A DNA stretch of 64,000 nt from Schmidtea polychroa (taxonomy: Eukaryota): the NCBI GenBank assembly GCA_044892525.1, contig CM097886.1:153140001-153204000 (forward strand). Reading direction: 5' to 3'. Positions within the stretch are counted from its first letter, which is position 1, and the number at the start of each line of letters is the position of its first letter. The notes beneath the pieces were generated by a model. That model had not been told where the DNA came from. It worked only from the letters and a program-made list of their open reading frames with translations, and did no database searches. Below are positions 1-48,926 of the stretch, piece by piece. The position numbers were made by a program, and so were the translations under genes.

Positions 1-59
1 GTATACTTTACCCAAATTATTGTTCATCGAAAGAACATGATAATAATTGCCATTCTATA

Positions 60-3000
60 ATGGAGAATTATTATACGAAAAAATATTATAATAAAACTTA
101 TTTTATATGTCCCGTATGTAAGACTAGTGACCCCGTAACATATAGCGTTTTTTATAATAAACATAAAAATCATTTAGATAGGTTTAATTTTAAAAAAGAT
201 AGTGTTTTTAAAAGACCCTCAACTATAGAAAAAAATAATAAAAATAAAAAAATTAAATTAGATACTTCTTCTTTTGAATCCCAGGTCGGATTGCCTTTTG
301 TGGAATCCAATGATGGATTGGTTGTCGAATCCCATGATGGATTGGTTGTTGAATCCCAGGTTGGATTAGATAATATTTCCCTTGACTCTTGGGATGGATT
401 AAATATAATACAAATAGGTGGAAATGTTCCAATAATACAAAAAGATCTAAGAGGTACCCATCAAATATTAAGCTTAAATACAAGCGACTTAAATATAAAA
501 GAAATAATATTTCCTGAACAACTAATAAAAAAATTACGAGATATTATTAACGAATTAGGCTCCGTCAAAATTCAATTCGGAATAACAATCGAATTTGAAA
601 AAGACGGGGAAATAAAGGTTAATAATATCTCAAATTATGCAAAGCCTTTAACTGCATCATTTTTTGATGAAGGCATTAAGGAATTAAATGAGAAAATTAC
701 TAATATTACTGAGTTAGGAAGCAGTTGGAATATAAAAAATATCACTGAAATACATTTCACCATAACAAAAATAAGTAGGCTAAGTAGATTAAGTGGTAGG
801 AGTTTCATTGAAACACCTACTTATCTAAAAAATAAATATTGTTTAATTAATATAAAAAACACCGATGATTCATGTTTTTTATATAGCATTTTAGCTATTT
901 TAAAATATGATGAGGTTAGTAGTTATGCTAGAAATAGGACATCCAGTTATAATTTATCTGAATTAATATATAATCCATTGGACTTACCCATGAAATTAAA
1001 AGATATTAGAAAATTCGAGGCCAAAAATCCAGGCTTAATAATTAACGTTTTTTCTTATGACAATAACAAACAATTAATAGATAATTACGTATTAAAACAC
1101 CCACATTTAGATATTATACATCGTTCCAAAGTTTTAAATGGAACTGTAATTAATTTACTATTATTAAATAAAGGAAACAATTTCCATTACGTTGCTATAA
1201 GTAATTTAAATAAGTTAATGAATTGTCATATCAACACTAGTTGTCCTACACGCATACGTTCATTATGGTGCCATCGGTGTTTGAATGGGTTTAATAATAA
1301 ACACGCACTAGAAAAACATGAAATATTATGTAAACGTAATCAATTAGGAACAACTCTTTACACCTTCCCTCAAAATAAATTATTACAGTTTACTGACTGG
1401 TCGAAAACAGTAACTCCGCCTTTTGTAGTTTATGCAGATTTTGAGGCTATTTTACCTTCTGATAATGATCATTTCCAACGACACATGCCAATATCTGCTG
1501 GTCTTTTACTTGTAAATAACTTTGACGGATCTAAATCTTATCAGCAGTTCATAGGTTTAGATTGCGTCGAGAGTTTTTTAAGTGCTATAGAGGATATAGC
1601 ATTAAATAAGGTTCTTCCTTTTTATTATAAAATGGGTAGGAAACCTATGATGAAATTAACAAAAATTGAACAACGTCAATTTGTTAGTGCATCTGTTTGT
1701 TATCTTTGTATGAAATCTATCGTCGATCCTGTTAGAGATCACGATCATTTTACGGGGAAATACTTGGGTGCAGCTTGTAGCACATGTAACGTAAATAGGA
1801 AAATAAATAAAATTTTGCCTATCGTATTTCACAACTTGAAGGGATACGATATGCACCATATACTTAAATATGGATTAAATAAATTTAAAAATTGGAATTT
1901 AGGGTGCATCCCAATAACTACGGAAAAATTTATATCTTTGATTGCTCATTTAGGTAAAATTAGCCTAAGATTCATTGATTCGTATCAATTTGTCAATGAT
2001 TCTTTGGCTAAAGCAGTCAAAACTTTGAATTCTTTGCCTTTTACTAATTCTGCTTTTTCTGGCACCATAGTAAGTGAAAAAGGAATCTTCCCTTATAATT
2101 TCGCCACTTCTTTAGATATTCTCCAAACTACTTATGAATTACCACCAATCTGGGAGGGTGTCACTGAGCTTGAGTATGAAAAAGCTCAGGAGATTTGGGT
2201 AGAAACTAATTGCGTAACTTTATTAGATTATATGATGATCTACCTAAAACTTGATTGTTTTCTTTTGGCTGATTTCTTTCATCAGTTTCGGTTGAAATCC
2301 ATTGCTCACAATAGATTGGAACCATTGAATTATTTCGGAATTCCAGGCATGTCTTGGTCTTCTGCATTAATGTCTTTAAATGAACCAATTGAACTCATAA
2401 CTGAAAACGAAATGTTTAGCTTTTATGAGGGTGGAATAAGAGGCGGTCTTACTTTTGTGAATAAGCATTACGTAAAAACCGACGAGAACACTGAGTTACT
2501 ATATATAGATATTAATAATCTTTATGGCTGGGCTTTAAGTCAATCATTACCTTGTGGCGAATTTTGTTGGGTTCTTGATGGATTTGATAAAATAATGGAT
2601 GAATGTAGGAATTTAAATCTTGAATCTTTGTCTTATGGATACACACTTGAAGTTGATCTTGTAATTCCTTCTGAGCTTCATGATAAGTTGGATGATTTCC
2701 CTGTAGCTGCTGAAAAAATGAAACCTGCTGGGTCTAAGGTTGAAAAATTATTATTAACTCATCTTCCAAAATCTAATTATGTTATTCATTGGAGATTATT
2801 AAAATTATATTTGGAACTTGGTGTTAAAGTAACACGTGTAAATAGGGGTGTAAGATTTAAGCAATCACCAATTTTTAAAAAATATATAGATACAAATACC
2901 GAATTAAGATCAAAAAGCGTAAATAGCTTAGATAAAAATTATTATAAATTGCTAAATAATAGTTTATACGGCAAAACAGTTGAAAATTTAAAGAGAAGAA

Positions 3001-3848
3001 TGAATCTTCGTCTTTGTACAACTGCCGGTAAATTAGTTAAATATTCGTCAAAACCAACTTTTAAAAAATCTATTAAAATAGCAGATAATTTAATTGCAGC
3101 ACTATTGAATTCCGATTCTATATGTTTAGATAGACCGAGTTACATTGGTCAATCTGTACTTGATCTATCTAAACTTAGAATGTATGAATTGCAATATAAG
3201 GATCTGGAATCATTTCGCAATGAGTTTAATTGTAAAATTAATATCGTTGCAGGTGATACAGATTCTTTTTTCCTCGAAGTCATTAACTGCAAACTTGAGG
3301 TTCTTTTACCTGCAATGGTTCGAGATAATTTATTGGATACTTCCAATTACAATAGTTGTCATTCCTTATATAGTAAGAACCTTGATTCAGTCATTGGAAA
3401 GTTCAAAGACGAGAATAAAGGTCTTAAATATAAGGAGTGGGTTTTTCTTAGACCTAAATGTTATAGCTTGTTGGGTGATGAGGAAACAAAAAAGGCTAAA
3501 GGTGTAACATTGAAAGGTAGTGACATAAAACATCAGTCATACCTGGATTGTTATAACACTAACCAGATTTTTTCGGTTCCTCAGACTAAAATAACAAGCA
3601 AAAATCATCAAATTTTTACAATTAAAAACACAAAAATAGCACTAACTAACAAAGATGACAAAAGGGTTTGGGTGGGGCAAAATACTAGTCTTGCATATGG
3701 GCATGTAAGATTAAGTGAATTAAATATTGCAGAAAATGTTTCAGAAAATGTTGGAGAAAATGATGGAGAAGATGAGGAAGAATTAAATGAAGATTTTGGA
3801 GAAGATGACATCGATATCGATGACGTTATTTTGTCCGATGAGGACTAA
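60..3848 (+). CDS. Protein-primed family B DNA polymerase (pPolB) of a Polinton/Maverick-like element
   Basis: Uninterrupted 1262-aa ORF. Exonuclease motifs: ExoI VYADFE, ExoII FHNLKGYD, ExoIII YLKLDC. Polymerase motifs: GGIRGG, motif A YIDINNLYG, motif B KLLNNSLYGK, motif C GDTDS, then GKFKDE, RPKCY, KAKGV, DDKR. Confidence 0.95.
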   Translation: MENYYTKKYYNKTYFICPVCKTSDPVTYSVFYNKHKNHLDRFNFKKDSVFKRPSTIEKNNKNKKIKLDTSSFESQVGLPFVESNDGLVVESHDGLVVESQVGLDNISLDSWDGLNIIQIGGNVPIIQKDLRGTHQILSLNTSDLNIKEIIFPEQLIKKLRDIINELGSVKIQFGITIEFEKDGEIKVNNISNYAKPLTASFFDEGIKELNEKITNITELGSSWNIKNITEIHFTITKISRLSRLSGRSFIETPTYLKNKYCLINIKNTDDSCFLYSILAILKYDEVSSYARNRTSSYNLSELIYNPLDLPMKLKDIRKFEAKNPGLIINVFSYDNNKQLIDNYVLKHPHLDIIHRSKVLNGTVINLLLLNKGNNFHYVAISNLNKLMNCHINTSCPTRIRSLWCHRCLNGFNNKHALEKHEILCKRNQLGTTLYTFPQNKLLQFTDWSKTVTPPFVVYADFEAILPSDNDHFQRHMPISAGLLLVNNFDGSKSYQQFIGLDCVESFLSAIEDIALNKVLPFYYKMGRKPMMKLTKIEQRQFVSASVCYLCMKSIVDPVRDHDHFTGKYLGAACSTCNVNRKINKILPIVFHNLKGYDMHHILKYGLNKFKNWNLGCIPITTEKFISLIAHLGKISLRFIDSYQFVNDSLAKAVKTLNSLPFTNSAFSGTIVSEKGIFPYNFATSLDILQTTYELPPIWEGVTELEYEKAQEIWVETNCVTLLDYMMIYLKLDCFLLADFFHQFRLKSIAHNRLEPLNYFGIPGMSWSSALMSLNEPIELITENEMFSFYEGGIRGGLTFVNKHYVKTDENTELLYIDINNLYGWALSQSLPCGEFCWVLDGFDKIMDECRNLNLESLSYGYTLEVDLVIPSELHDKLDDFPVAAEKMKPAGSKVEKLLLTHLPKSNYVIHWRLLKLYLELGVKVTRVNRGVRFKQSPIFKKYIDTNTELRSKSVNSLDKNYYKLLNNSLYGKTVENLKRRMNLRLCTTAGKLVKYSSKPTFKKSIKIADNLIAALLNSDSICLDRPSYIGQSVLDLSKLRMYELQYKDLESFRNEFNCKINIVAGDTDSFFLEVINCKLEVLLPAMVRDNLLDTSNYNSCHSLYSKNLDSVIGKFKDENKGLKYKEWVFLRPKCYSLLGDEETKKAKGVTLKGSDIKHQSYLDCYNTNQIFSVPQTKITSKNHQIFTIKNTKIALTNKDDKRVWVGQNTSLAYGHVRLSELNIAENVSENVGENDGEDEEELNEDFGEDDIDIDDVILSDED

Positions 3849-3889
3849 TTTTATTGAATAAATTTTATATCTTTACATTTGTTATTTGG

Positions 3890-4010
3890 TAAATTTTTAT
3901 GTTTGTTATGTGTCTAGTTCATTTTTATGTGTTTAGTTAATGTTTATATGTTTTGTTATGTGTCTAGTTATTTTTATGTGTTTAGTTAATTTTTTATGTG
4001 TTGTATAGTA
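3890..4010. repeat. Two ~51-bp tandem copies in the subterminal region
   Basis: TTGTTATGTGTCTAGTT..TTTTTATGTGTTTAGTTAAT occurs twice in tandem. Confidence 0.8.
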
Positions 4011-4035
4011 TTTGGTTGATATATTATTAATATTA

Positions 4036-4073
<38 letters not shown>

Positions 4074-4329
4074 TCATAAAAATTTTCATTAAAAATTATC
4101 TTAAAAATTATTCTATTAAAATTTCCATTAAAAATTACCATTGAAAATTATTCATAAAAATTTCTATTAAAAATTACTTAAAAAATAATTCATTAAAATT
4201 TCCATTAAAAAATTTCAATTCTCAAACACCTTCTATTTTTGTTAATAAATTTAAAAATCTTACTTTAATTTACTTATTACATTACTTTAATTTACTTATT
4301 TAAAAATTATTACTTTAATTTACTTATTT

Positions 4330-4885
4330 AACTTTAATTTAAATTTTTTTTTACCATTGATTATTTAATTTTAAAATTTGGACCTTAATTAACTTTAATT
4401 TAATTTTTAGAACCATAATTTACTTTAATTTTAAAATTTTTGACCATTATTTACTGTAATTTAATTTTTAGAACCATTTACTGTAATTATTTACTGTAAT
4501 TTAAAATATTTGGACCATTATTTACTTTAATTTAATTTTTTAGAACCATTATTTACTTTAATTTAAAAATTTGGATCATAATTTACTTTAATTTAAATTT
4601 TTGGACTGTAATTCAAAAATTTTGACCATAATTTACTTTAATTTAATTTTTAAGAACCATAATTTACTTTAATTTAAAAATTTGGACCATAATTTACTGT
4701 AATTTAATTTTTTAGAACCATTATTTACTTTAATTGAAAAATCTTAGCCCATAATTTACTTATTTAGACCATAATTTATTTTATTTCAAAAATAAATCTG
4801 AACCTTGATTTACTTAAATTTTTAGACCCATCATTTACTTTATTTTTAAATTTTAGACCCATAATTTACTTTATTTTAAAAATTT
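4330..4885. repeat. Degenerate ~30-bp tandem array (about 18 units)
   Basis: Repeated unit like GACCATAATTTACTTTAATTTAAATTTTT, with (G/T)GACC and AGAACC variants largely alternating. Confidence 0.85.
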
Positions 4886-6796
4886 ACTATGCGTTTTTTA
4901 ATGTAAACCACCTTTTCTATTGAAATTCTCATGACCAAGAAGATCCCCTCACTATAGTGTGAAAAATCCATGCTTTTTTATTGAAGACTACCTTTTTCTA
5001 TTGAAATTCTCAGGACCAAGGAGACCCACCCAAATAATATTTATCCTTGGCTTGTTTATTGAAAAAAAAAAAAAAAAAAAAAATTTGTATTTAAAATCCC
5101 AGAAAACATTGGGCATTACGGCAACAATTATGTAATCAAAATAATGTCTACGGAAAAAGTTATGCAATCAAAAGTTTGCAACATTTGTTACCCCCCCCCC
5201 TATTGCTGCCGCGGGCCACTAACTCCCTACTGGTATTGATTCTGACTTCTCATGCTCTTTGTCTCAGTTATCAAGATAAAACCAAACACAAAACAGTTTA
5301 TTAAATATCAACAAATTTTGATACAAAGTTCTCAATTACACTCTTAGTTCTGAACTATTTAATAAAAATTAAAAGCAGGGAGACCGATTTATTCAGATTT
5401 GACAATCATTTTTATCTTTTTTAAAATTTGAATTGTCTCAGCTTCTTACTCTTTAATCACAATATAGTACTTTCCTCGCTTACACCAACTGGCCTTTGTC
5501 CAAAATAGTTGTTTACTTTTACTTATTCTGCTTACATGCACGATTAAATCAGCATCGATCAAAATTTCGAAAAACCGAATAATTAAACAGGCACCATCTC
5601 ACTATTTTCTATTTTAAAACTAATTATATAAAGATTCTGGCTTTTACGTGTCAGGTTTTTTGTGACCATGGGAAAAAGTTTGCAACGACTCACTATAATA
5701 TTTCTATAATGACTCATGACACATAGACTGAGTAATGCTTTTATTCAGCCCTTCTAAAGCTATAGCATCAGATTCGATTAGTCAACTTGCTTGAGATGTT
5801 CTCAAACCTGTCCCTAGATCGAGAAGACTTATTTCAATTGTATCAACGAAATACGAAAGACTGTAAAGTGGAATATCTAAGTTAAATTATCAAAAATTCT
5901 ACGGAACCATTAAAAATAACTGAATATTACGATGAATAATTGTCCGGTAAAATTTTTTGTGTTTGATTAAGTTCTCGATTTTCAGTAAAATATCTATATA
6001 TGACATCAAGAATTTGGTGAAAGAAAAAATCAGTTAGTATTAAATAATTTCTCACCCAAATAAGTTGACTTTTGTCGTAGTTTTCATTAAGCTCTTTTAT
6101 AGAACATTATGATTCCAATTAGAAACAAAATTACAACATCAAAACAAACAATAATAATATTAATTTTAACTAAAACCTCCGGATATTACCTATAATAATG
6201 ACAATATTCCTGGCTCAAACAGATCCTCGATAATATTAATGGTGCTAATTAATGACTAAAAATTATCATTAGATAATTTAAAAGATTCTAACATTGTGCG
6301 GTAAAATAACTAAAATACTTTAGTATTTTAAATTATCATATTTATCTTTTAATTTCACCTTTGATCATTTATTAATTCATTAATTTTCATATTATTATTT
6401 CAAATAATTTATTTGTAAGACTAGATCAATTAAAAATTTATGGAACACAGTGTTTATCAAGTGTGTATTTCAATCGTTATATAAATTTAATTTTAAAGTG
6501 ATTTTATTGGTTAAAATTTTATTAATTTAATTATAATTTAATTTTGAATTATATAAAATTTTCGGAGAATTGAATGTTAATAGATGATTTGTGTTTTTAA
6601 TGAATTTTTAAATCTGTATTTTAAATCCAATAATTTACCACTGAATCGGCCAAGTTAAACAAAAAAAACCAATCGTTTATTTTGTATTTTCAACATTAAT
6701 TTAATATAACATAACCAAAAGAAAAGAATTTTGAATAACTTTAATAAATTATTGTGAAATAAAGTTAAAAATCAATAATTCCAAATTATTAGTTTA

Positions 6797-9700
6797 TCAA
6801 TACTGTGAACGCTTAACAACTTTTAATAAAATTGGTGTAATAGGCGCAGTCAATCCGAATTTTTTAAATTTCATTTCATCCTAAAACAATATCAATATAA
6901 AAATGGTAGAAATATGTTTTACGAGAGTTTCTGAACAGGGCACGATTTCAAATTTTTGTAAAATAGTCACAATTGCCCATTTCACCTCAAGAAGAGCAAA
7001 TCTCATTCCAACACAATTCCTTGGTCCCATTCCAAACGGCATAAAAGAGTAGCCTCCACGAGTTTTCTTATTTTCATCATCAAATCTTGATTTATAACAT
7101 CAATAGTCAATCTTTCGACATTTCAATGCACATAATTTAACTATTATAATAATTGTATAATAAAATCTTATAAACTTGTGAAATCAAATATCAACGTGGA
7201 ATTTTATATTGGAAAGAATACCAATTCAGAAATTTTGGTAGTTAATCTAAACCCGCCAAACTTAATATCAACGGCCACCCACCCACAAACAAGTAGAAAT
7301 TTTCGGGAGAAGGAGAGAAGCAAAAAATATCAAAAGGAGAGTGTGGCAAAATACGAGAATTAGAGCAACAGAAAAAGAACCCTCAATTTTATTCGGTTTT
7401 TTTGATCCTAACAAATTCATTATTAGGTTGGTGATAAAATTAAAACTCTTACTCTGACTCCAAGCGTGTCTTTAACTAACCCATAAATAACACTTGACAA
7501 AAGAAGTCTATATTGATAATCACAAAAATTTCCACTTTACACTGCCAATAATTCAACACACCGCTCGGTGACTATACGATGATTATTGCAACATTTAGTA
7601 ACGAATAGCACTTGTGTACAATACCGGATTGAAAGATTACTAACTACTGATTTGTTTATCAACTGGGACTTTGAGTTGGTTGTTTTCTTTGACCTTCTTC
7701 GAAAACTTTATTCAAATATTCAAATAACTTCTTTTCGTTTATTTCTCAACTAATTATGTCAAAAACGGAGCAATTACAACGATTATTGGAGTATATAAGA
7801 AAACTCCAAATTCATATAATCGGCAGTAGCGTTGGTAGGGACGAAGAAACCGAGAATAGGAGTTTGGGGAAAAGAAGCAGAAACTGTTCATGTTTAAATT
7901 CAAGATAACGCATAATAATTTTATTTCCATCCACAGAGCCAGTTTTGAATAACAACAGTTTGTCCATGTCAATACCATAAGATAATGCCATCATTGAACA
8001 ACCTAATGGTCGCATCTCAGTTAATTGGGTAGAAAGCTGCTTAATATCCGCAATAGAACGACATATTATGTCACAAGGCATTTCATATCCATGTTTATAT
8101 CTAAATCGAGCTGCTTCCATTTGTGCACGACATACTTGAGATCGATAATCAGGGATCATACCAGTCATAACACCTCCAGTACTTTCAGTAATATTAAACA
8201 ATCTTGTAGCTGAACTCTTCTCAATCATTTTATCTGGAACCTTTCTTTGTGTAGCTACTACATCACAATTATTGCATCGAATACCAACGGAAATCCATCC
8301 ACCAAATAAATTTAATATTAATTGGCCAAAACCCACCACTAAAGTTATCAGATTCATACATTTCTTTATTAAAAGCAGCCATCATTAACAACTCTTTCCT
8401 TAAATCGAAACATAACTCATTCCAATACAATCGATCGATAAAAATCTAAATCTAAAAATTAGAACAAAATTACAACAACTAATTCATAAAAATTGCCATA
8501 CCTATTGCTCGCGTCTGTGTGCGCATACAAGCCAAAAACAAAGAAAAGAAAAGCGCACACAGACGCGAGATAAACTAACAACCCAACACAAAAATGACAT
8601 TGCTCGCGTCTGTGTGCGCACACAAATACAACGCACACACAGATGCGCATTGAGCTCACAATTTTCCAGAAACTGAAAACGAGAATTATAAAAGGAGCTG
8701 AAGGGTTTGAACGAAAGAGATTATCAAAGGAATTCGGATCAAAGAGTGAAAAAGAGAATCACCAGGTGAAACTTAGTTTAAATCGAACAAGGTCGAGACA
8801 TTACAGAGCGAAGCTCGATCCGGTATTGTAACGACTGTTGCTGATTGAAAATTGTTATTTATCACTGAGAGTTGTAAAATTGTAATAAACAAATATACGT
8901 TGGGAATTTTTGTTTATCGATTTTGGAATACGTGAAGTCAGAGTTATTAACGGTTGACTTTTCAATGTTACAAAACCCAACATTCGGTTACAGGAGGTAG
9001 GAAACGGATAATTATGCTAGGAGATTCAAAGGCGATATAGCCTGAAAAAAAAATCATGTCTCATAACCTAATTGAAGACGTGTGTTTGTCATACAAATAT
9101 ACGAAGCATTAAAATGATCGCTAACATCCTCAATTCGATGAGTCATGCTTTCCATCAGTCAATCAGAACGCTTTATGCCAGAGAGCTCACGTCTACCTAC
9201 TCACATCAGTGACGAGAAAATATAGAATTCATAATCGAGACATGTAAGATAATGAAATACCAGCTGACTAATGTAATCTTTGCGTCACCCACACACGTCG
9301 AATGTTTATTTATCTATCACACAACACAGCGAGAACCTTCTATCATACACACATTAGACACGACGCCCAAAAATTCAAAATTATTGTTAACTATGGCTGA
9401 ATATCGTCGATGAGGATGTATGTGGTAGTTAAAAATCTAAGAGAGGATTCACGAACGACACGAGAAGTTTGATTTTCAAATTTAGTAGGGAATTAAATTA
9501 TTAACGTAATAATAAAATCAATAAAAAAATCAAAGTTTTATCAAGGTTCCTTTAATTTCAACGAAATGAATTATAGAGATTTCTCGGGCAGACCAGTAGG
9601 TGACGATGAAACAAGTACAAGTGCAGTAGACGCGAACGGAGAAACGGATCTAGAGAAACTCAAGAACAGGTATCAACCAATGGAGAGCACCTGGTTTCAA

Positions 9701-10959: not shown

Positions 10960-13664
10960 GGTGGGTCGAAAAATTTTTTTTTCTCCAAACATGCCTAAAA
11001 AGTTGTGCTTATGCTAGAAAATGAAATATCCCTGCAAAAGACTGCTGTTTAAAAGGGTTTACAGGTCCCAACTTTTGTTTGTATGTATTAGTACTATCCC
11101 AGTAAAAATGCTCGCACACGTGCCATTGTAAATTCATCCTGCAATTTCATACTGGCTTTAACGAACAAGCAACTCTTTTCGCAAAAAAGGTGAAGGAAAT
11201 TTATATGAAGGCAAGTATCCCAACTGTTGAGTTCAGTAGTATTGTGGTTCGTGTCAAGCGACTAATATCAAAAGTGCGTGAATTAGAGAAGTATCCAGAA
11301 TGCAAGAGGTCATCTGCCAAATTTCAAGATAAGTTAAGCTCGTTTTCCAAATTGTTTGACATATGTTGCTGCAAATGTTTTAATGATGGTGCTCGTGGAA
11401 GAAGTCAGTGTACATGCCGATTGGCCTTGAAAATTCCTACCTTAGAGTGGGAGTTCTGGATTGACCAACAAACTACCAGAAACATGAAAATCGGAAATAC
11501 GGACAGACAGGAAACCTCAAAATTGAAGAGAAAACAAACGAAAAGCAGCCCTACAGGAAAAGGAAAACAAATGAAAAATGAAATAATGGACACTGAAGTT
11601 AACGATCTACATCCGACCTCAAGAAGTGACACGGAGAGTGAAGCCGCTAGTGATGAAAGTAAAGATAAGTTAGACAATTCAACAGAAAGCTCAGAGTCAA
11701 GCGTAGAAGAATGTGATGAATTTCAAAATAGAAGACATTATCCTGAATTAAGTAAAGCTGTTGACAGATGTGGTGTGAGCAACAGAGACACGTGTTTGCT
11801 AGTAAACGCTTTTCTGAAAGATATGGAACTGTTATCCTCTCAAACAATCATCGATCCCGCAAAATTACGGCGTCAGAGAAAGTACTGGAGGGAGAGAGAA
11901 ATTGAACAGCATTCAGCAGAAGCGAAAAACTTGATTTGCCTCGGTTTCGACGGGAAACAAGATTCCACCTTACTTCATAGAAGGATCCTAAAAGAGGAGC
12001 ATTATGTGATTGTCGCCTTTCCAGGGGATACATATATCGATCATGTTGTACCTCAAAGTAGTAAAGCTGTGGATATTGGCAAAGAAATCATGTCAATCAT
12101 CGTTAGCACGCAGTCCTCACTGACCCTTCAAGCAATTGTGTGCGATGGAACCAATACAAACACCGGAAAAAATAATGGAATAATCAGAAGACTCGAAAAA
12201 AGCCTAGGGCGACCTCTACAATGGCTGATATGCTTGTTGCATGCAAATGAATTGCCATTCAGGAAGTATTTTTCAGTCGTCGATGGTGGAGAAACAAAAG
12301 GTCCAAAAACGTCATGTGGTGAAATAGGAAGCGTTCTTGATTTTGATCCAAAAGACAAGCCCGTAGTAGCCTTTATGTCCCTTCCTGGAAAGGTCGTAGA
12401 TATTAGTGAAAATGTCAAGAAAGAATTGAACACTGATCAATTGTATTTCCTCAGAGTATGCTTGGCAGTCCAGAAAGGGTACCACAACAACAAGGATGTC
12501 CCTTTTCTACAAATGGCACAACCAGGAAATTTGAATCACAGTCGCTGGCTAACGAAAGCTAATAGAATTCTGCGACTATATATGTCCGAAACTGCTCCAT
12601 CTGAACCTCTCATGCGAATAGTGAAATTTATTGTCAATTTCTATGGACCGTCATGGTTTTATATAAAGACTCACTCGTCATGCCAAGATGGTGCAAGAAA
12701 TATTTTTTATATGCTCCAACTTCTGCAGGATTTGGATCCATCAGACCAAGAAATCATCTTTCCTGTCATTCAGAACAACAATTACTTCTCACATCCAGAA
12801 AATATACTCCTAGCTGCTGTTGGTGATGATGATGAAGAAATCAGAAAGTTTGCAACAGAAAAAATCATAACTGCAAGACAAAATTTTCTCCCTTCCGAAG
12901 TGATTCGCACTATGGACAAGAATACTGTCTTTCTTCAGTCGTCTGCTACATCATATGTTGACATGATTGACTGGACAAAATGTAATTTGACGCCTCCCCC
13001 TCTTTTATCTCATATATTGGATCATGAATTGAAGATGAATAAGAAAATTACATTAGAACAATTTCCCTGTCATTCTCAAGCCGTTGAAAGAGCCATCAAA
13101 GATGTTTCTTCTGCCAGTTGCAAAGTGTTTGGTCACAAGTCCAGACATGGTATGGTACTACTGTGTAAAAAATCAAGGAAGGAATTGCCCAAGGTGCAAA
13201 GCAAAGCTGATTTCATGTGACTTCTTTTTATGCCCTCGCTAATACATTTCTAAACTTTTGGCTGGATGTTTTTAATAAAAAATAATTTCGAAAGTTGATT
13301 TTTGTCTTTGAAAAGGATAATTCAAATTTGGCCCTTCCTAATCACTGACGTTGTCAGGATATATTTCAATGCGGGATGAGGACACAGAATATACTATCTC
13401 AGCCCAAGAGAGTAAATAATATACTTATAAGCTCTTAAGAAAGCTACATCTAAATATGGACAAAGGCGCAAAACACATTCCGACACTAGCCAAATTACAT
13501 TGTTTTCACACTTATGTTGAACTGCATTTTCGGAGAAAAGTTGGGAGCAGTAAATGTCCATAAATCTAAGTAAAATGGTTTGATTCGATTTTTCTATACC
13601 AAAATACAACTTTTTAACCATGTTTCCTTTCTTGAACTCAAAATTTATTAACATTCGACCCACC

Positions 13665-16700: not shown

Positions 16701-19700
16701 TCATCTCTGTATTAGAGCTTGTGAACATTATTGACTGAAAGCATTAACCAATATTATTGAGCACAATCAGGACTGTATGAGTAAAGTAGACATGTCAGAT
16801 TTAAAAAATTGGAAACGTATAATTTATTAAGCTTTGTTAATATAGTCATTGAACCTAAAATTAATGTACAATATTCTATGAATGTGTGTTTTGAATGTCT
16901 TTAAATAATTTGGATTGTAAATTCATTGTATATGGATTATTGTTTATTTCAAATACATTAAATTATTGAGTTAAATAATTTAAAATTTAAATTTTAAAAG
17001 GGTTTATAGATTGTAATAAATTAAATCTTTAAATTAAATTTTTAAAAAATTAATAAAATTTATTCATAAATCAATAATATTTATAGTTTTCTCTATCCTA
17101 CCTGATGATAACAGGAAAACTGTAGAAATATATCGTAAAACGAATGTCTGAGTAGCCCTTTGTAATAATTTATGAAACATTAACATTTTATAAATAGAAT
17201 TTTATATATAAAATAAACCAATTAATGATATGTTGTATTGAATGATTGTAGAATANNNNNNNNNNNNNNNNNNNNNNNNNNNNNNNNNNNNNNNNNNNNN
17301 NNNNNNNNNNNNNNNNNNNNNNNNNNNNNNNNNNNNNNNNNNNNNNNNNNNNNNNNNNNNNNNNNNNNNNNNNNNNNNNNNNNNNNNNNNNNNNNNNNNN
17401 NNNNNNNNNNNNNNNNNNNNNNNNNNNNNNNNNNNNNNNNNNNNNNNNNNNNNNNNAAATATGTTAATTGAAACGAGGAAACAAATACATAACAAATCAA
17501 TGATTGATATGATTAATACAGGGTTTTAAGTTGTATTTTGACAAGCATAATATATTTTTTGACAATATTAACCAGATAATAAACAATATTAAATCTATTA
17601 TTGACAATATATACTAAATTAATAACAATAAAAGCTTTATTAATGACATTATAAATATATTTTTAGACATTCTATGCATGGCTCGACAAATAAATCAATT
17701 TCCTGCTTCCATAGCAAATAATACAGAAATAGAAGTCGAAAGTGATAACACTGCCGAACCAGCTATCCGTAACACTTTTCGAGTACAACGAAGAAATAGT
17801 ACAACTTCAAATGCTGATAGAGATCGTGTTATTACAGCATATGATGACGGGACTTCAATAGTTGATATTTCTCGAATTTTATCAATAAAAAGAACTACAA
17901 TTTATGGTATTTTGAAGAAGTACCATAACACTGGAGTGGTGGAAGCTGATAAGAGAGGCGGCGATCATCCACAAAAATTGACAGAGAATCAAAAAAATCA
18001 AGTAAAAGAGTGGGTTGATAATAACTGCCAATTATTGTTGAAAGTTTTAGCGGAAAAGGTATTTACAGAGTTTCAAATTAGAATATCCACTACTTATGTA
18101 TATAATTTATTATCTCGTTTTCATTATTCAATGAAAAGACTTCATTTAATTCCAGAGAGAAGAAATTCAACAGAAGTAATTGAAACAAGAAAAGAATATG
18201 CACTTAACTTCTCTTCTATACTAAGTATATATTCAGAACAAGAATTAATATTTATTGATGAGGTGGGATTCAACGTTTCTATGAGAACAACAAGAGGAAG
18301 ATCACAAATAGGCACTCCTGCAACATTAAATGTGCCGACCATACGATCAAGAAATATATCTATAGCATGTGCAATGAACAAAAATGGGTTATTGTTTTAT
18401 AAATCTTTTAATCGGGCCCTCAATAAAGAGAAGTTTATCGAATATATAACAGAGCTAAAGGAAGTTTTAATTGATAAAGAGATTCACAGATGCGTATTCA
18501 TAATGGATAATGTTAAGTTCCATAAAAGTCCTGAAGTGCTTAGCGCTATAAAAAATGAAAATACAACTGTAAAATTTCTTCCACCGTACTCCCCTTTTCT
18601 CAATCCTATTGAGAACATGTTCAGCAAGTGGAAGGAAATCACCAAAAGAACCAACCCCAGAAATGAAGATGATCTTAGGCGAGCAATTGAAAATGGAAGT
18701 ACCCTAATATCTTCACAAGACTGTAGTAATTATGTGCGAAATATGTGGTCATATATACCAAGATGTATTGAGGGAGAAATTATTCTTAATTAAATGTCAC
18801 TTAATTTTTTTGTCATTAATATATTATTATTGTCATTAATATTATTTAAACTGGCATTTATTTTATTAATATTGTCATTAATGTATTTAACATTGTCAAA
18901 GATTATATTAAAATATTCAAAAAATATGTTATGTTTGTCATAATACGACTTGAAACCCTGTATCTCAGTTGATTAAATTTCAAAGAAATGTTTATTATCA
19001 GGAATAATGATGACTTACCTATGAATATCAAACTTGTTTGGATTTGGCCAAATTGATGAATCCATATGAATGGAATAGATAGGTACCGTAAATACATCAC
19101 CTTTTTTCGCCATAATTTTACTTCCATCAGATGCTGTTAATAAGATATCTTGTGTGCAAGTTCTATCTATTCTAGAAGCAGGTGGGCAAATTCTAAGAGT
19201 TTCAGAAATTGCAGCATCAAGTGAATGCATTGTCATCAAGGTTTCATAAGTTATTTCACCCTAAACATCATGAAAATATGTTTTATTAATTTTGAAAATA
19301 TGATTGATTCAAGGTTGAAATGAAAAAAAAATAGTCATAGGAGATTGATTCACCTCCATAGAAAATTTTATAACCACTTAGGATGGTTTAGGATGGTTTC
19401 ATCGATTTACTGACATCATAAGCGTTTGAATCGCATATTGTAAATTGAAATCATTCGAAGTAGACCATTAGGTCTTTTCAATTTCTAGTAGCTAACACGA
19501 TATTCAGTAGTGGAAAAGGTTATTTGTAAAATACATTTTGGAACTTCATGAAAGATTAAAAAATACATTTATATTATATTTAGGGTTACCAGACATCGCG
19601 GTTTTCTGGTTCGGCGTGGTAAAAGTCTGGTAACCATATTATATTAAATTTTTCCATAGGAGATTTGCGAATTCAATCTTGATTGTTATAGAAAAATTTT

Positions 19701-37700: not shown

Positions 37701-40700
37701 AGCATTGATTATCACAATAATTCTTTGTTTCTGTTGATAAACTTGAAACTTACAATAAAGATATTTTGGATATACAAGGGTTCATTAACACTAAGTGATG
37801 ATCATGTTGACTGGATAATTAATGAATCTACAATTGAGTATTTGTTGAGAAATAGAATCAAACAAAATCTTGCAGACTTTATTCGGCGATTTGTAAATGA
37901 CGAAGTCACAGCCAGAGTTTTTCTTGTATATTCACCTAGTCATATATTTTAGGATGCTTACATTTTTTTATAATTCAAGTTCAATAATGTGCAGAATGCA
38001 CATTGCACATGACATGTTATAACTTGTACAAGTATTGACTAAGGAAGAAAATCCAAGAAATGTTTAAACATTATGTTATTAAAGTTTAAACTAATAAACT
38101 CACTAAGTTACTAATACTTAATTTTTTACACTTTTGTTTTAGATTTCTCTTTCCAATATTTATGTTAACATTTGTGGATGTCATATGCAATTTTAATTTT
38201 GGATAGGGCGAGAAATTTGCTGGAACTTAAAACCTAGATTAATATATCCATATGCTATTAAACTCAATTTTTAATATAAATATGGTTTCATTCATTTGAT
38301 TTGCTATCTAGATTAGGGCCCTTAAATAAGTGTTGATACGGGGGTCCTTATTCCGGCAATGAATGTAAATTATATAAGTATACTTTTTTCAATTTTCCAG
38401 AAGTAAAAGTAGGTGAAACTAAATTTCTAACTCTTTCCCAATCTTTGCCTTTCAAAATTGTCAACATTTTTTCAGTACTTTTTCCGTTGAATCCGATATC
38501 CTAAAAAAATATTCCTATAAAGAGAAAATTATAACAAAATATATTAAATATTTATTCGAAGGAAAATAGAATTTGAATAAGAAAATATTTCATGTATATA
38601 AAAACTTATTAGATTTCCTTCAATATTTAACTTTCTCTAACAAGTACCTTCCACATTAATAAAAATATCAATTTAATAATTAAATTTAAAATATATTATT
38701 AAATTAATTAAATTAAAATTAAATTAATTGTAACTAAAGCAAATTAAAATCGTTGTTTAAATAATCTTTTCTTTAAAAAAACGAACAATATATAAAACAA
38801 CTCATGAATCATTCGACATCTCAAGCGTTAACTCTCATCAGAACCAATAAAGAAAATATGCCAAACATTCAAGAAGCTGAAGCCTTCGTTTTCCTAGCTG
38901 CGATCTCTATGTTAATTAGCTTGATCATCAACACCTATTCAACCCAAGAAATAATCCTTAGAATACTAATTCTCAATTCTAGTGATTCTCCTGATAAAAT
39001 TCGTTACGAGAACCGTACTGACCTATCATCCACATTCAGTCAAAAGAAGTTAATTAACAATGTTATTACAGATAAAGATTCAAATACTTTCACATCGTAC
39101 GATACTTGAGTCTAAATGCCTAAATGCAAAATCATCAACAATCTCAGTACAATTGTCTGATCAAGTTATCGTGCTTTCGCTAAAACACTGACAACTGGAT
39201 CAAATATTTCCATGATTTCTTTCAATGTGGTTTACATTAAATCTTTATTCAAATTAGTTTTATGTCCCGACACGAGTAACCATAATTTATCAAAATTTTA
39301 AATATTTATATATCGAGTTTTCCAATTTTTCAAATATTTTAAATTCTTTTCATATTATTTTGAATGTTTTCATATTATTTTGAAAATTATAAAGATTTTT
39401 TTAAAGTATTCATTCTGTTGTAATAATTGAATAGGACTGTGTAATAATATTAAAGAATTAATATTATTATTCTTGTTTTAATTTGTGATAAAAACAAGAA
39501 TATATAAATTTGAATTTGGTCATTTTTTGAATTGTAACAATGGCGTCGCGAGCAGGATTTCCAGTATTAGATCTCACAAATGCAGATCAATGTCAAACAT
39601 GGATGATGACATTCAGTGCAATGACTCGAATTAACAAATGGGTTGATTCGGATAAACAGAATGTAATAACAGACAATTTCATTGCCGTATGCGGGTACGA
39701 GGCCCTTGGCAAAGTCATATCAATGCTGTCCCCGAGAAATATTCAAACAGTCAAATATGAAGAAATCGAAAGAACTATAAAATCGTTCTTACAACCAAAG
39801 ACAAGACTAGTGATAGCAGAAAGAAATAAATTTTTCTCATTAAAGCAGAAGGAATCATAAGGAATCAGCGATTTCATTCTCAGACTAAGAAAGGGAGCCG
39901 AATTCTGTCAATTCTCAAAACTAAAGGAATCAACAGATCCGACAGAAGACATGATTACAATGTCACTAATTGCAGGATTACATGACAGTGAATCTAAAAA
40001 GCGTTTGTTAGAAAAGATAGGCCATTCGGAACCAAGCGTCGACGACATCAAAGAGTTCGTTCAAAACATGGAGCAATTGAAAAGCTTCATCAACAAGAAC
40101 GTAACCCCTGCAGAATCAGAAGAAGAAAGCTCTACAGAATTGGACATAGGATCCATATGTGCAGTAAATTCATGTCACAAAGAATTGGTAAGCTGCTTAA
40201 TAAACTCAAACAAAATTCAGATGCAAATCGATACGGGAGCAGATGTCTCTATAATTTCGTCGAAACTTTGGAAAGACTTGGGTGAACCGAAGCTAAAACA
40301 TCATAATATGAAACTCACAGCCTACGACTGTCACATTATGAAATGCCTAGGTTACTTCACAGCAGAAGTAGAAACGGAAAAAAGAATTCATGCTATCAAG
40401 TTAACAGTTATTGAATCAGAGAAATCATATGGATTGTTGGGACAATATATTATTGAAGATACTATGACCATCAATTCAGCAACAGCAAAGAATAAATCGA
40501 GCAAATTCCTTCCAAGTATACGAGGTGTACAGGCAAAAATGGAACTCTTAAAAGATGCTAATAATTTCTTTTGCAGAGCAAGACCAGTACCGTTAGCATT
40601 AGAGAGCAGAGTCAACGCTGAGCTCCTACGCCTAGAAGAAATGGGTAAAATCTCCCCTTGTCGCGATCCAGTTGCCAATTGTTCACCAGTTGTATGGATC

Positions 40701-43700
40701 AAGAAAGACAATGGGGAATTGCACATGTGCGTTGATTTCAAGGTCCACGTAAACCGTAAGATTAAAACTGAAACGTATCCTCTGCCAAATATTGAGACTA
40801 TTTTTGCCCGTATGAAGAATGCAAAAAGATAAGCAAAGATAGATCTGAAATCGGCATATTGGCAAATCGAACTAGACAATAATGCAAGGCAACTTTCCAT
40901 CATAAATACCTCGAAAGGTCTATTCTACGTCAACCGCTTACAAATGGGTATGAAGAACTCATCTATATTCCAGAGAACAATGGAAGACATACTAGCCGAT
41001 ATAAAAGGCATTTTAATCTATCAAGACGATATATTAGTCTTTGGAGAGAATGACGAGGTTCTAAAAAACGATTAGAGGCGGTAAAGCAAAGATTAAAAGA
41101 AAAAAAAGATTACAATAAACAAGGAGAAATCAATCGAATATGTCGACGAAATAACGTTCCTCGGATTCAGTATTTCAAGCCGAGGCATCCAACCGGACCA
41201 AAAGCTGATCAATAAAATACAAGATATATCAGTGCCATCCAACAAAAAAGAAGTTGAAAGTTCTATAGGCTTAGTAAATTATTTCGGCCGGTTGATACCA
41301 CAATTCTCGAATAAAATATCACCGATAAATAACCTCCGAAAAAAAAGAAGCTCAATTCATATGGTCAAAGGAATGTCAAGAAAGTTTTGATAAGCTAAAA
41401 ACGGAACTAAGTTCCCATCCCATAGTTAGATCGTATTGTCTAAAAAAAGAAGCAACATTAACCACAGATGCATCGAAAGAAGCCATAGGAGCAGTCCTCG
41501 CACAAGAAGGACATCCAGTCATATTCGTCTCGAGGACATTATCGATAGCAGAAAAGAACTACTCTAATATAGAAAGAGAAGCATTAGCCATAGTCTGGTC
41601 AGTTTCAAGATTAAGCCACTTTCTATTAGGGCGAAAATTTACATTACAAACTGACCACCGCCCGCTCATATGTTTATTAGGAAGTAATCAAGCAATACCC
41701 GATCATACTTCTCTGCGAATTACGAAATGGGCTTTAAATCTGATGCAATATGATTACATCATTACACATGTTCCAGGAAAAGAAATTACTCATGCGGATG
41801 CATTGACGAGATTACGATTTAGTAATCAAGCGGTCGATTTTAAGACATTGAGCTATGCTAGAATGCACAGTGTCGTCTTTCAAACAATTTTAAAACCCCA
41901 AGAAGTAAAATGTGAGCTACAATTAGACACTCGTATACAAGGAATTATGAACAGGGTAAAACGTGGAAAATGGTCAAAATGCAGTCAGTATGAATCCTCA
42001 CTTAAGGCGGTTTCAGCATCTCTCACAATCGAAAATGGAATGCTATATAAAGGATCTCGTCTATTCATACCAGAACGTTTAAGACGAAAGGCGATAGATT
42101 CGTTCCACAAGGAATCTCACAGTGGCATCCAATCATCCTGCAGGATGATTCAAAACGCAGCATGGTGGCCTGGTATAACGAGAGACATCGAACAATATGT
42201 GAAAAAATGTGAAATATGTTCTACATTACGCCCCCAGAAACAGAAGACAGTCCACGAGTGGCCAAACGCCACACCCTTTGAAAGACTTCACATAGATTGG
42301 GCGTACTCCCGAGACGTCGGAAACATTTTAATAATCGTTGATTCAGGATCGGGATGGATCGAAGCCTTTAGAACCAAAGAACGCACAACTGAAAACGTCA
42401 TCAAATGCCTACGAACAGTATTCATCAGATTCGGAATACCAGAATGCATAGTATTCGACAACGCTCCTGAGTTTACATCAAAAGAATTTTTAGCATGGAT
42501 TGAGAATCAAGGAGCTCGAAAGATAGAATCTCCACCTTACTTTCCAATGGAAAATGGGAGGGCAGAGAGAGCTGTCCAGACAATAAAGAAGAGGATCAAA
42601 TGTTGGAAGCTAAGCCAGTGTCATATGGAATTTGACGTCTTCCTCCAGAAGATGTTATTTTATCATCGCATCTCAGCAAACTATTATGGTAAATCTCCGG
42701 CGGAAATGGTTTTTGGAAGGCAGATTAGAAGACCAATAGTGAGCACATTCGACAAAGGCCAATCAGTCGGATACAAGCCGTCCTCCAATCATGAGTTAAC
42801 AAATCAGAAATATCTTATGCCAAAAGGAAGAAACACGTCGTGGATAATGGACGTCTAGGGAGATGAGCCTGTCTTACGACTATCAAGCAATAATCAAATA
42901 TACTCCCCAGGCACCAAAAAAGCAACAGAAAAAACATTTACTTCTCAGGAGAACGCCGAGGACAATTCATATCAGCCTTCTCTCTTAACGGAGACTATGC
43001 CCGACGGCGATAACCGAGTGAGAAGTCAGAGATCAAGAAGACCTCCGAACCTTTACGGCGAATGGACACTAGAGAGAGACATGTAATAATATTAAAGAAT
43101 TAATATTATTATTCTTGTTTTAATTTGTGATAAAAACAAGAAAATATAAATTTGAATTTGGTCATTTTTTGAATTGTAACAGACTGCCACTAGGAATACA
43201 TGTATAGTTATTATCATTAGAATAAATAAAAAAATATTTTTAACTATTGATAACAAAATTTTGAATAGAGTAAATATGAAAGTATAATTTATTTGTTTGG
43301 AAAAATTCAAATTTTGGATTGTCTTTAAAATGGGGAAAATCAAGAGATGACGATTTAATTTCATTTATATTAAATAAAGTGTTTGAATCATAGCCATTCA
43401 AATAATTGATTTGGATCAAATATAGTTTTATAATGCGTTTTTTAATACTTGTGTGTGTGTGTGTGTGTGTGTATTATACTTGTCAGTAAATCAATTAAGA
43501 TAAATTTTTAATCAGTACTTAATTATTATTTATGACCAGTAATAAATTTTGACCAATGATAATTTTTAGGTGTTACTTTTTATGGAGTTTTAATGACTGA
43601 AACATCAAAAATATTGTTCCCAAAGTATAAACGTAAATTCCAAGGGATAAATATGTTTCGAATGACCGTTACCAAAAGAATCAATAACATATGTAATAAT

Positions 43701-47844: not shown

Positions 47845-48926
47845 TTGCAGATACAAGACGACATATTGATGATTAATACAGATGGAAAAATTGCAGTTGT
47901 AGTACCTGACACGTACGTAAAGACATTAGTAAATTATTTTCGTATTGAATTATGCCATCTGGACATTAAGAAGACCTTATGTTATTTAAAAGATTTTTTC
48001 TTTTGGCCATCCATGAATCAGAGTATTACGGAATGTATTAATAAATGCAAGACCTGTGCTAGTAGAAAGATTGATCAAAGAAGAACAAAGGAAATCCTTT
48101 TGCCAAGAACAGGAGAAAGATTTTTAGAACAGATAGTAGTGGATATTGCATATATGGAAACAAAAGCAAGTAAGAAATATATGATAGTGATAATAGATCA
48201 GTTTAGTAAATTGGTCAATTTATCAGCAACAAGTACACAGGAGGAATCAACGATTTTCAATGTCATTCTGAATAATTGGATATATCGGTTTGGTAGACCA
48301 GAAAGCATTCTTACAGATAGAGGAAGAATTTTTGAAGGATCAATGTTTCGTGATTGACTGAAAAATTTGGCATAAAACAAGAATTTAGTTCACCATACCA
48401 ACATCAATCAAATGGTTTAGCTGAACGAATAATAAGAACATTTCGGGACATGCTGGCAACATCATTGACAGATATTAGAACAGAAAATAATTGGTGCAAA
48501 TAGTTACCAAAGATTGAATTTAGTTTGAATGCTACAGTACAAAACTCAACAAACCTTTCCCCCTTTGAAATTGTATATGGTCGGAAGATTAATTTATATT
48601 TTTTTTATATTTACATACAAAAAAGCCGAGAAGAAATTGTAAATAAAACAAAAACAAATTTAGAGAAAGCAGTGACAACAATGAAAAATAGAGATATAGA
48701 CAAGTGAGGTACTCAGGTACTCATGGTGGGAGAGGAAGTATTAGTTCGTTTGGAACCACATAGACAAAAAAAGGAGGGAATTCAATATGAGGGACCTTAC
48801 AAAATTTTAAAATTCTTATCACCAAGAGAAGTTGAATTACAATTTTCAAACTCAATCAAATCAAGAAGAATTGAATGGCTGAAAAGATGCAAAGAAAATG
48901 ACAAGGAGGAGAGTGATGTTCAATAA
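47845..48926 (+). pseudogene. Gypsy integrase remnant
   Basis: CHL..KKT...K..F.WP.M....C..CA zinc-binding region, IVVDIA, ILTDRG, SNGLAER and YEGPYKI. Contains stops and frameshifts. Confidence 0.85.

Follow-up and report, generated by a model that had tools for sequence, protein, structure and literature searches.

The window, a 64,000-nt stretch of the Schmidtea polychroa genome (contig CM097886.1, positions 153,140,001 to 153,204,000, forward strand), contains a monomeric copy of a mostly palindromic family of mobile elements. We consider it probable that this family is a polymerase-only Polinton derivative, its palindromes likely generated by single-strand fold-back and its copies likely integrated by the integrase of a helper Polinton. 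The element carrying the window protein-primed family B polymerase (pPolB) is approximately 7.9 kb in length; its two Polinton ends are unlike each other, and a single 6-bp target duplication flanks it. From left to right it comprises a 1,197-bp mini-element, an arm with pPolB (from L031:1490) and a different right end. L031 denotes the sequence from G000:C2:153137001 onward, which covers the stretch upstream of the window; all other coordinates are those of the window.

L031:293-1489, + strand: left end and 1.2-kb mini-Polinton (1,197 bp), about 2.7 kb upstream of the window
3849..5231, + strand: AATAAA at 3857, AT-rich subterminal repeats and element right end (...CTCCCTACT at 5231); this end recurs genome-wide
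5232..5237, no strand: target-site duplication GGTATT, repeated directly 5' of the left end, 7,939 bases upstream

The mini-element has short inverted ends of about 60 bp. The left end of the element, AGTAGT, fits the (AGT)2 or (AG)3 end motif of Polintons, and the right end reads AGTAGG on the opposite strand. The two ends of the monomer have only 5 bases in common and form no terminal inverted repeats; in dimers, the repeat spans the entire arm. The 20 kb upstream of the window pPolB held no gene for an integrase, ATPase, protease or capsid protein, and no ORF of 100 aa or more lies between the element ends besides pPolB and a short overlapping frame. Because the rve integrase, packaging ATPase, protease, and major and minor capsid genes are all absent from the window element, we regard it as a Polinton derivative and not as a complete endogenous virus. 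An earlier note on this DNA had proposed a recently active endogenous virus-like element. A refuting case that it had named itself, a lack of Polinton genes upstream, was borne out: the upstream 20 kb is free of Polinton core genes, and the left end lies 2.7 kb away. Recent activity is supported by the window copy, which differs from its nearest copies at 2 of 2,862 bases. A second monomer with its own target duplication was identified (L041). A further hunt with an end pattern, which is blind to ends preceded by G such as those of L041, gave 19 matches (the window, 4 pairs and 10 singles) and no additional monomer among the 10 singles.

The pPolB ORF (60-3848, + strand) is uninterrupted and encodes 1262 aa, with the following features on the same strand.

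1..3848, + strand: predicted last and main pPolB exon, presumably spliced; frame open 3-3848, first internal ATG at 60
1..50, + strand: extra C-x6-C-x4-H-x3-C motif, predicted zinc-binding, its first Cys codon completed only by predicted splicing
108..173, + strand: CxxC...HxxH finger-like motif, aa 17-38, present in about half of the homologues aligning there
492..773, + strand: terminal-protein domain, predicted little-finger/PAD-like, aa 145-238 (4ir1_F, Z 6.7, rmsd 2.8, 81 aligned)
816..1214, + strand: predicted vOTU-like cysteine protease domain, aa 253-385, with Cys272/His376 (8c83_x Otu2, Z 7.0, rmsd 3.2, 94 aligned)
1269..1331, + strand: C2HC zinc-finger motif CHRC...HEILC, aa 404-424, kept in 106-107 of 107 homologues
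1431..2255, + strand: 3'-5' exonuclease with ExoI, ExoII and ExoIII, split by the nuclease module (ORF motifs and homologue alignment)
1638..1805, + strand: predicted beta-beta-alpha-Me (HNH/EndoVII-like) module with zinc ligands, aa 527-582, core 1698-1790 (structure model 2)
2508..3266, + strand: polymerase motifs DINNLY, KLLNNSLYGK and GDTDS (ORF translation and homologue alignment)

A search of 5.8 billion proteins revealed 713 relatives, and the best 120 of these were aligned; residue counts omit gapped rows at each position. The protease pair, Cys272 within NTDDSCFLYSILA and His376 within NFHYVAI, was near-invariant among the best 120 of 713 homologues (96/96 and 105/105). The same 120 retained the C2HC finger (C404, C407 and H420, 107/107; C424, 106/107) and the nuclease core (C547 and C550, 119/119; H561 and C576, 120/120; N577, 119/120; D560, 101/120). 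The N-terminal finger CPVC...HKNH, which begins at nt 108, was patchier, with C17 found in 26/54, H35 in 19/35 and H38 in 18/32 ungapped rows. The nuclease core CYLC...DHDH...CSTCN (aa 547-577, nt 1698-1790) lies between YADFE (aa 458), the ExoI motif, and HNLKGYD (aa 591), the ExoII motif; DINNLY, KLLNNSLYGK and GDTDS represent polymerase motifs A, B and C. By its motifs and its homologues, the window element encodes a protein-primed family B polymerase, as Polinton/Maverick elements do. The motifs are not due to chance, because they are near-invariant among the best 120 of 713 homologues, and this alignment points to the HNH module as a family-wide trait of this polymerase clade.

Two regions were modelled, aa 145-597 (model 1; 453 aa, 89 sequences, pLDDT 90.6) and aa 511-602 (model 2). 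The terminal-protein (TP) region models as the little-finger/PAD domain of Y-family polymerases; the chain that it resembles, 4ir1_F, likewise serves as a match for Polinton TPs in section 7 of 10.1101/2024.03.18.585575. Matches to OTU proteases reached Z 7.0, which is under the Z 8 caution line, yet many OTU chains fill the list for this range. The top four matches of model 2 were Hpy99I, Gme HNH (a nickase), T4 EndoVII and McrA, at Z 5.1-3.6; Hpy99I aligned over 54 residues (Z 5.1, rmsd 1.9), T4 EndoVII over 64 (Z 3.9, rmsd 4.2), and PacI was a weak match (Z 2.9). In model 1, too, the exonuclease insert resembled a beta-beta-alpha-Me nuclease. With the aa 511-602 model, Foldseek placed EndoVII in the top row at E 0.086, and neither this model nor the 453-aa one had a match at E ≤0.001. 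Searches of PDB sequences, run with the whole protein or just aa 521-590, returned nothing useful. The window protein scored 18.3 bits against PF02945, under the gathering cut-off of 23.6, and by hand count about 55 of the 120 best homologues (of 713) bear a precomputed PF02945 mark. D560, H561 and N577 are conserved, and the residue three past N577 is Arg, where T4 EndoVII has Glu.

The modelled fold families agree with the conserved residues, though the Z values are middling, and together they support the predicted domain order TP, OTU, zinc finger, exonuclease with inserted His-Me nuclease, and palm. The earlier note had placed two fingers, Cys272/His376 and a CYLC...DHDH core between ExoI and ExoII, and these positions were borne out. 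Its suggestion of retained catalytic residues is matched by the near-invariant OTU Cys/His and nuclease core, both present in the window copy, and domain-by-domain structure prediction gave models that resemble a PAD-like TP, an OTU protease and a beta-beta-alpha-Me nuclease. The domain set cannot be taken as a special feature, since it is already published for Polinton pPolBs and near-invariant across the homologues; because the domain order and the HNH insertion are both in the literature, the window pPolB is an ordinary member of its clade.

The start of the gene likely lies upstream of ATG 60, in three further exons.

L031:2529-2583, 2628-2684 and 2731-2794, + strand: predicted leader exons, upstream of the window and presumably spliced

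These leader exons (55, 57 and 63 nt) precede the main exon and are bounded by GT-AG introns. The frame is open from nt 3, and a pyrimidine tract ending in AG lies directly 5' of window position 1. The ORF of 60-3848 stands as an open frame but is likely not the complete gene. A C-x5/6-C-x4-H-x4-C motif occurs at the matching place in homologues P0017, P0022 and P0026, where it is intron-free. The leader was in phase in 14 of 18 fully readable arms and out of phase in 4 of 18, including the window copy, in which a frameshift in the third exon may be a sequencing error. An in-phase leader combined with an open main exon was present in 6/47 arms; the leader start was unfound in 22/47, and 7/47 were unparsable. 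One contig from run X10 (depth 5.6; RNA status guessed) is without exactly intron 2, retains intron 1 and departs from the element at the third leader donor. Its sequence past the exon-3 donor had no match in this genome, and a junction between leader exon 3 and the main exon was absent from the run contigs examined (RNA status guessed). The X10 contig thus hints weakly at real splice sites and does not prove that a polymerase mRNA exists. Reinitiation after termination, at the overlapping TAATG (nt 58-62), was also considered and rejected; the in-phase spliced reading and the homologue N-termini fit better. Separately, runs under a second organism label contained 0.76-0.80 of the words sampled from window positions 1-3900, which may point to a sister species that carries a nearly identical element, to transfer or to a problem with the label.

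The family comprises at least about 180 copies, mostly 13-15-kb palindromes with pPolB in each arm. Genome-wide, 183 + 184 copies of the 22-base outer end were counted (reversed control, 0), a lower bound because variant ends exist. The arm is joined to the CTACT end of the mini-element at one nucleotide in 663 places (333 + 330), a count that takes in relatives with other polymerases. Only two arm starts are without a preceding T, and both are inside a palindrome. The first 100 ends listed, on contig C1, resolved into 43 pairs and 14 singles. All 43 pairs were palindrome-type, with a median of 13,757 bp, as called from fetched sequence (25), a central junction motif (17) or opposed pPolB matches (1); one had a truncated arm and one a nested unrelated Polinton. 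Of the 14 singles, 12 came from palindromes in which the opposite end was variant, lost or nested; the others were a truncated arm and the monomer L041. A perfect 6-bp direct duplication flanked 19/19 elements whose fetched stretch contained a single left and a single right end (chance about 0.0008 each), a count that skipped stretches with zero or two such ends.

Three layouts of the same module carry target duplications: the monomer, a head-to-head dimer sharing the mini-element, which is the great majority, and a tail-to-tail dimer. The tail-to-tail element L149-L150 has the order mini-arm-arm-mini and its own target duplication. L139/L142, apparently one locus assembled twice, is also tail-to-tail, with a near-perfect hairpin junction at the outer-end tip. 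Other polymerase-only palindromes or part-palindromes were observed at L093+L088+L094 (G000:C1 ~10.205-10.219 Mb) and L089 (G000:C1 ~15.071-15.078 Mb), with pPolBs 50% and 57% identical to that of the window, respectively. The former shares its centre and inner arm with the window family; the latter has a different 160-bp centre, yet the same CTACTGTTTT arm start. An unrelated Polinton inside a palindrome (L048-L050, G000:C1 ~97.905-97.922 Mb) encodes a pPolB of 1463 aa with 28% identity; the 5' end of this gene recurs inverted at the opposite end, and no integrase-like ORF was recognized by eye in the list for this element. At L045-L047 and L084-L087, several arms together with flanking DNA form higher-order inverted duplications, about 30 kb long or longer, which are possibly misassembled.

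At the centre of the palindromes lies a remnant, 1 kb long, of a helper Polinton that encodes a capsid, and the ends of the mini-element are those of this 15-16-kb helper family, so that the module consists of a 1-kb mini-element made of helper ends and an arm with pPolB and its own end. Helper copies were seen in L051-L052, L081-L083, L138, L141 and L147-L148. The helper encodes an rve-chromo integrase, an A32-like ATPase, a TBP and its own pPolB, which is 59% identical to the window pPolB; a further helper protein is nearest to double-jelly-roll (DJR) clusters at a score of 0.98, this recognition being under the tool's line. The outer ends of the pPolB family diverge from the helper ends after the first 5 bases. 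One family palindrome is located inside a helper Polinton. The TATA-binding protein homologue of the helper is 154 aa in length (L051:3469-3930, - strand; PF00352, E 2e-15). Gene-less palindromes of 10-15 kb with helper ends, mostly with perfect 6-bp duplications, were also observed (L057-L070, L143-L146), one such palindrome being nested in a pPolB arm (L024-L025).

Sequence variation was surveyed over 2,862 coding bases in 47 arms. Arms within one element differed by a median of 0.5 SNP (16 elements), compared with a median of 42 between elements. In 3/16 palindromes the arms were 14-49 SNPs apart, and therefore recombination between copies takes place too. Variants present in at least two elements, which occur in lineage blocks and are not independent events, comprised 59 non-synonymous and 115 synonymous changes (pN/pS 0.13), and variants restricted to a single arm comprised 28 and 10, respectively (pN/pS 0.70; Fisher P = 9e-6 against shared variants). 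Pairwise dN/dS against the most distant sublineage (C1 197.7-Mb locus) was 0.07-0.09 at dS 0.18. These ratios indicate purifying selection on the polymerase between sublineages that lack capsid genes. Because the distant sublineage has the same arm/mini junction where read, the polymerase has likely been kept by selection without capsid genes. If the sublineages stem from unseen parents, part of this selection could be older than the loss of capsid genes; a search by end pattern, by junction pattern and among the first 100 ends (C1) turned up no capsid-encoding parent with the same polymerase.

Adenovirus offers a parallel in the repair of minichromosome ends and in snap-back defective genomes: a linear DNA with a single origin folds back on a short inverted repeat and becomes a symmetrical molecule with two origins. 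A comparable route would produce the layouts described here, with the difference that the window family integrates in the germ line, retains a polymerase gene and has reached high copy number. We infer that the mini-element inserted once upstream of pPolB in a parent Polinton, separating the polymerase end from the capsid and integrase genes. From what is known of the family, the spliced pPolB would be a polyprotein from which the vOTU frees the terminal protein, and the freed protein would prime strand-displacement synthesis at AGTAG ends and set free single strands. A monomer strand, which cannot pair its unlike ends, might then fold at its outer tip or on the mini-element's short inverted repeat. 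Extension of the folded strand would give a dimer with two identical ends, which may replicate well and so dominate. The rve integrase would be supplied in trans by the capsid-encoding helper family, and intact copies may provide polymerase to broken ones. The direction from monomer to dimer is the flexible part of this scheme, since monomers could instead be dimer resolution products; 2 SNPs separate the window arm from dimer arms. Some loci are inverted duplications that include flanking DNA, which simple fold-back does not account for.

A rather unlikely variant makes the dimers ancestral and has monomers arise from them by a cut at the end of the mini-element, for which the HNH module or the integrase might be responsible. 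Monomers are indeed rare (one among the first 100 ends and none among the 10 further single ends) and nested among dimer sequences, and the left end of the window element matches dimer centres; however, L041 and the tail-to-tail dimer have the helper-type outer end and not the head-to-head centre type. This variant would alter the order of events and not the nature of the element. A more elaborate proposal, which we judge doubtful, is a self-replicating satellite class in which the spliced polyprotein of a single polymerase gene provides priming and copying, its EndoVII-like module nicks hairpin and cruciform intermediates and the dimers travel as helper-packaged satellite virions; the 13-15-kb dimer would then dominate because it fits the capsid of the 15-16-kb helper. 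To the same doubtful proposal belong the ideas that several polymerase lineages in this genome adopted the same plan and that the three layouts pass into one another through the nicked intermediates. The EndoVII-like fold of the window module does not in itself imply junction cutting.

The family may conversely be a passive satellite, with the helper performing all replication and integration and pPolB a young passenger. Most arms are broken at the 5' end, gene-less helper-ended palindromes have spread too (6/15 of the larger helper-ended elements fetched) and the single-arm variants look neutral, but the dN/dS of about 0.07 over dS 0.18 between sublineages, one of which (C1 197.7-Mb locus) has the same junction, and outer ends that differ from those of the helper beyond the first 5 bases make this improbable. 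Still less credible is an origin of the palindromes in the chromosome after integration, by inverted duplication or template switching at replication forks, or as long-read assembly artefacts. Arms that are often 100% identical and the higher-order inverted duplications with flanking DNA would suit such an origin; direct 6-bp duplications, differing from site to site, bracketing the whole palindrome in 19/19 cases, the same module as fold point in hundreds of copies and the independent breaks often present in arms argue against it. Least plausible is an intact, complete endogenous Polinton with its multi-domain polymerase as the special feature. All domains and catalytic-type residues are present and the copy is young, but the element ends enclose no other Polinton gene, the motifs are family-wide and published, and for the window copy this view is refuted by its ends and target duplication.

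The polymerase-only, fold-back reading was compared with known systems. The nuclease module shares its core fold and zinc-ligand pattern with the His-Me finger nucleases T4 endonuclease VII, Hpy99I and PacI, but is only about 55 residues in length, lies inside an exonuclease and has no dimerisation domain. Animal Polinton/Maverick elements (adintoviruses), as described in the main texts of PMC8097293 and PMC8502044, likewise have an OTU-bearing pPolB, AGT-type ends and a 6-bp duplication. In contrast, the window family is without integrase, ATPase, protease and capsid genes and occurs as an unlike-ended monomer or a whole-element palindrome; intact vertebrate Mavericks are described there as intronless, whereas the window family likely has introns (three predicted). 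A TP and vOTU are described for Polinton pPolBs in the text of 10.1101/2024.03.18.585575 and PMC8502044, and polyprotein cleavage by the vOTU is a hypothesis in the former too. The TP-vOTU-Exo-Palm polyprotein of 10.1101/2024.03.18.585575 has the same domain order, PAD-like TP and Cys/His pair, to which the window pPolB adds N-terminal zinc motifs and a likely spliced leader. A zinc-binding HNH insertion inside a Polinton pPolB, as in the window pPolB, is described for nematode/oomycete pPolB2 (10.1101/2023.08.22.554363); the main text of that paper confines it to pPolB2 of these groups, whereas the window-type motif is near-invariant in the best 120 of 713 homologues. C. elegans has pPolB with a terminal repeat and no integrase at 10 loci (10.1101/2024.01.15.575659). 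These are polymerase-only remnants and are called remnants, not an amplifying palindromic family, in the main text of that paper, in which 'palindrom' has 0 occurrences.

The pPolB domains are therefore already known, and the palindromic polymerase-only family is undescribed in the literature searched. Neither literature searches nor word searches of the main texts of PMC8502044, 10.1101/2023.08.22.554363, 10.1101/2024.01.15.575659, PMC8097293, PMC11410931 and 10.64898/2025.12.11.693146 brought up polymerase-only Polintons in palindromic form; one may be described in Repbase reports, subscription papers or supplements. Polinton replication has been modelled, and direct observation is absent from the literature examined. 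A young family with monomers and both kinds of fold-back dimer may preserve natural traces of intermediates in which a single strand folds back. In addition, it shows that an integrase accepts unlike ends and that a polymerase can apparently remain under selection when no capsid or integrase gene lies in cis. Both the stability and the assembly of this genome may be affected by hundreds of 13-15-kb palindromes.

Several further features were observed elsewhere in the window. A 676-codon ORF at 11190-13220 (+) had no Pfam match above cut-off, and a 181-aa ORF at 7812-8357 (-) matched Proteasome subunit (E 2e-23). A DDE_3 transposase that has an HTH, frames for a retrotransposon protease and integrase, and part of a cytochrome P450 were recorded at 17678-18793 (+), 39951-42858 (+), 47845-48357 (+) and 54256-54711 (-).
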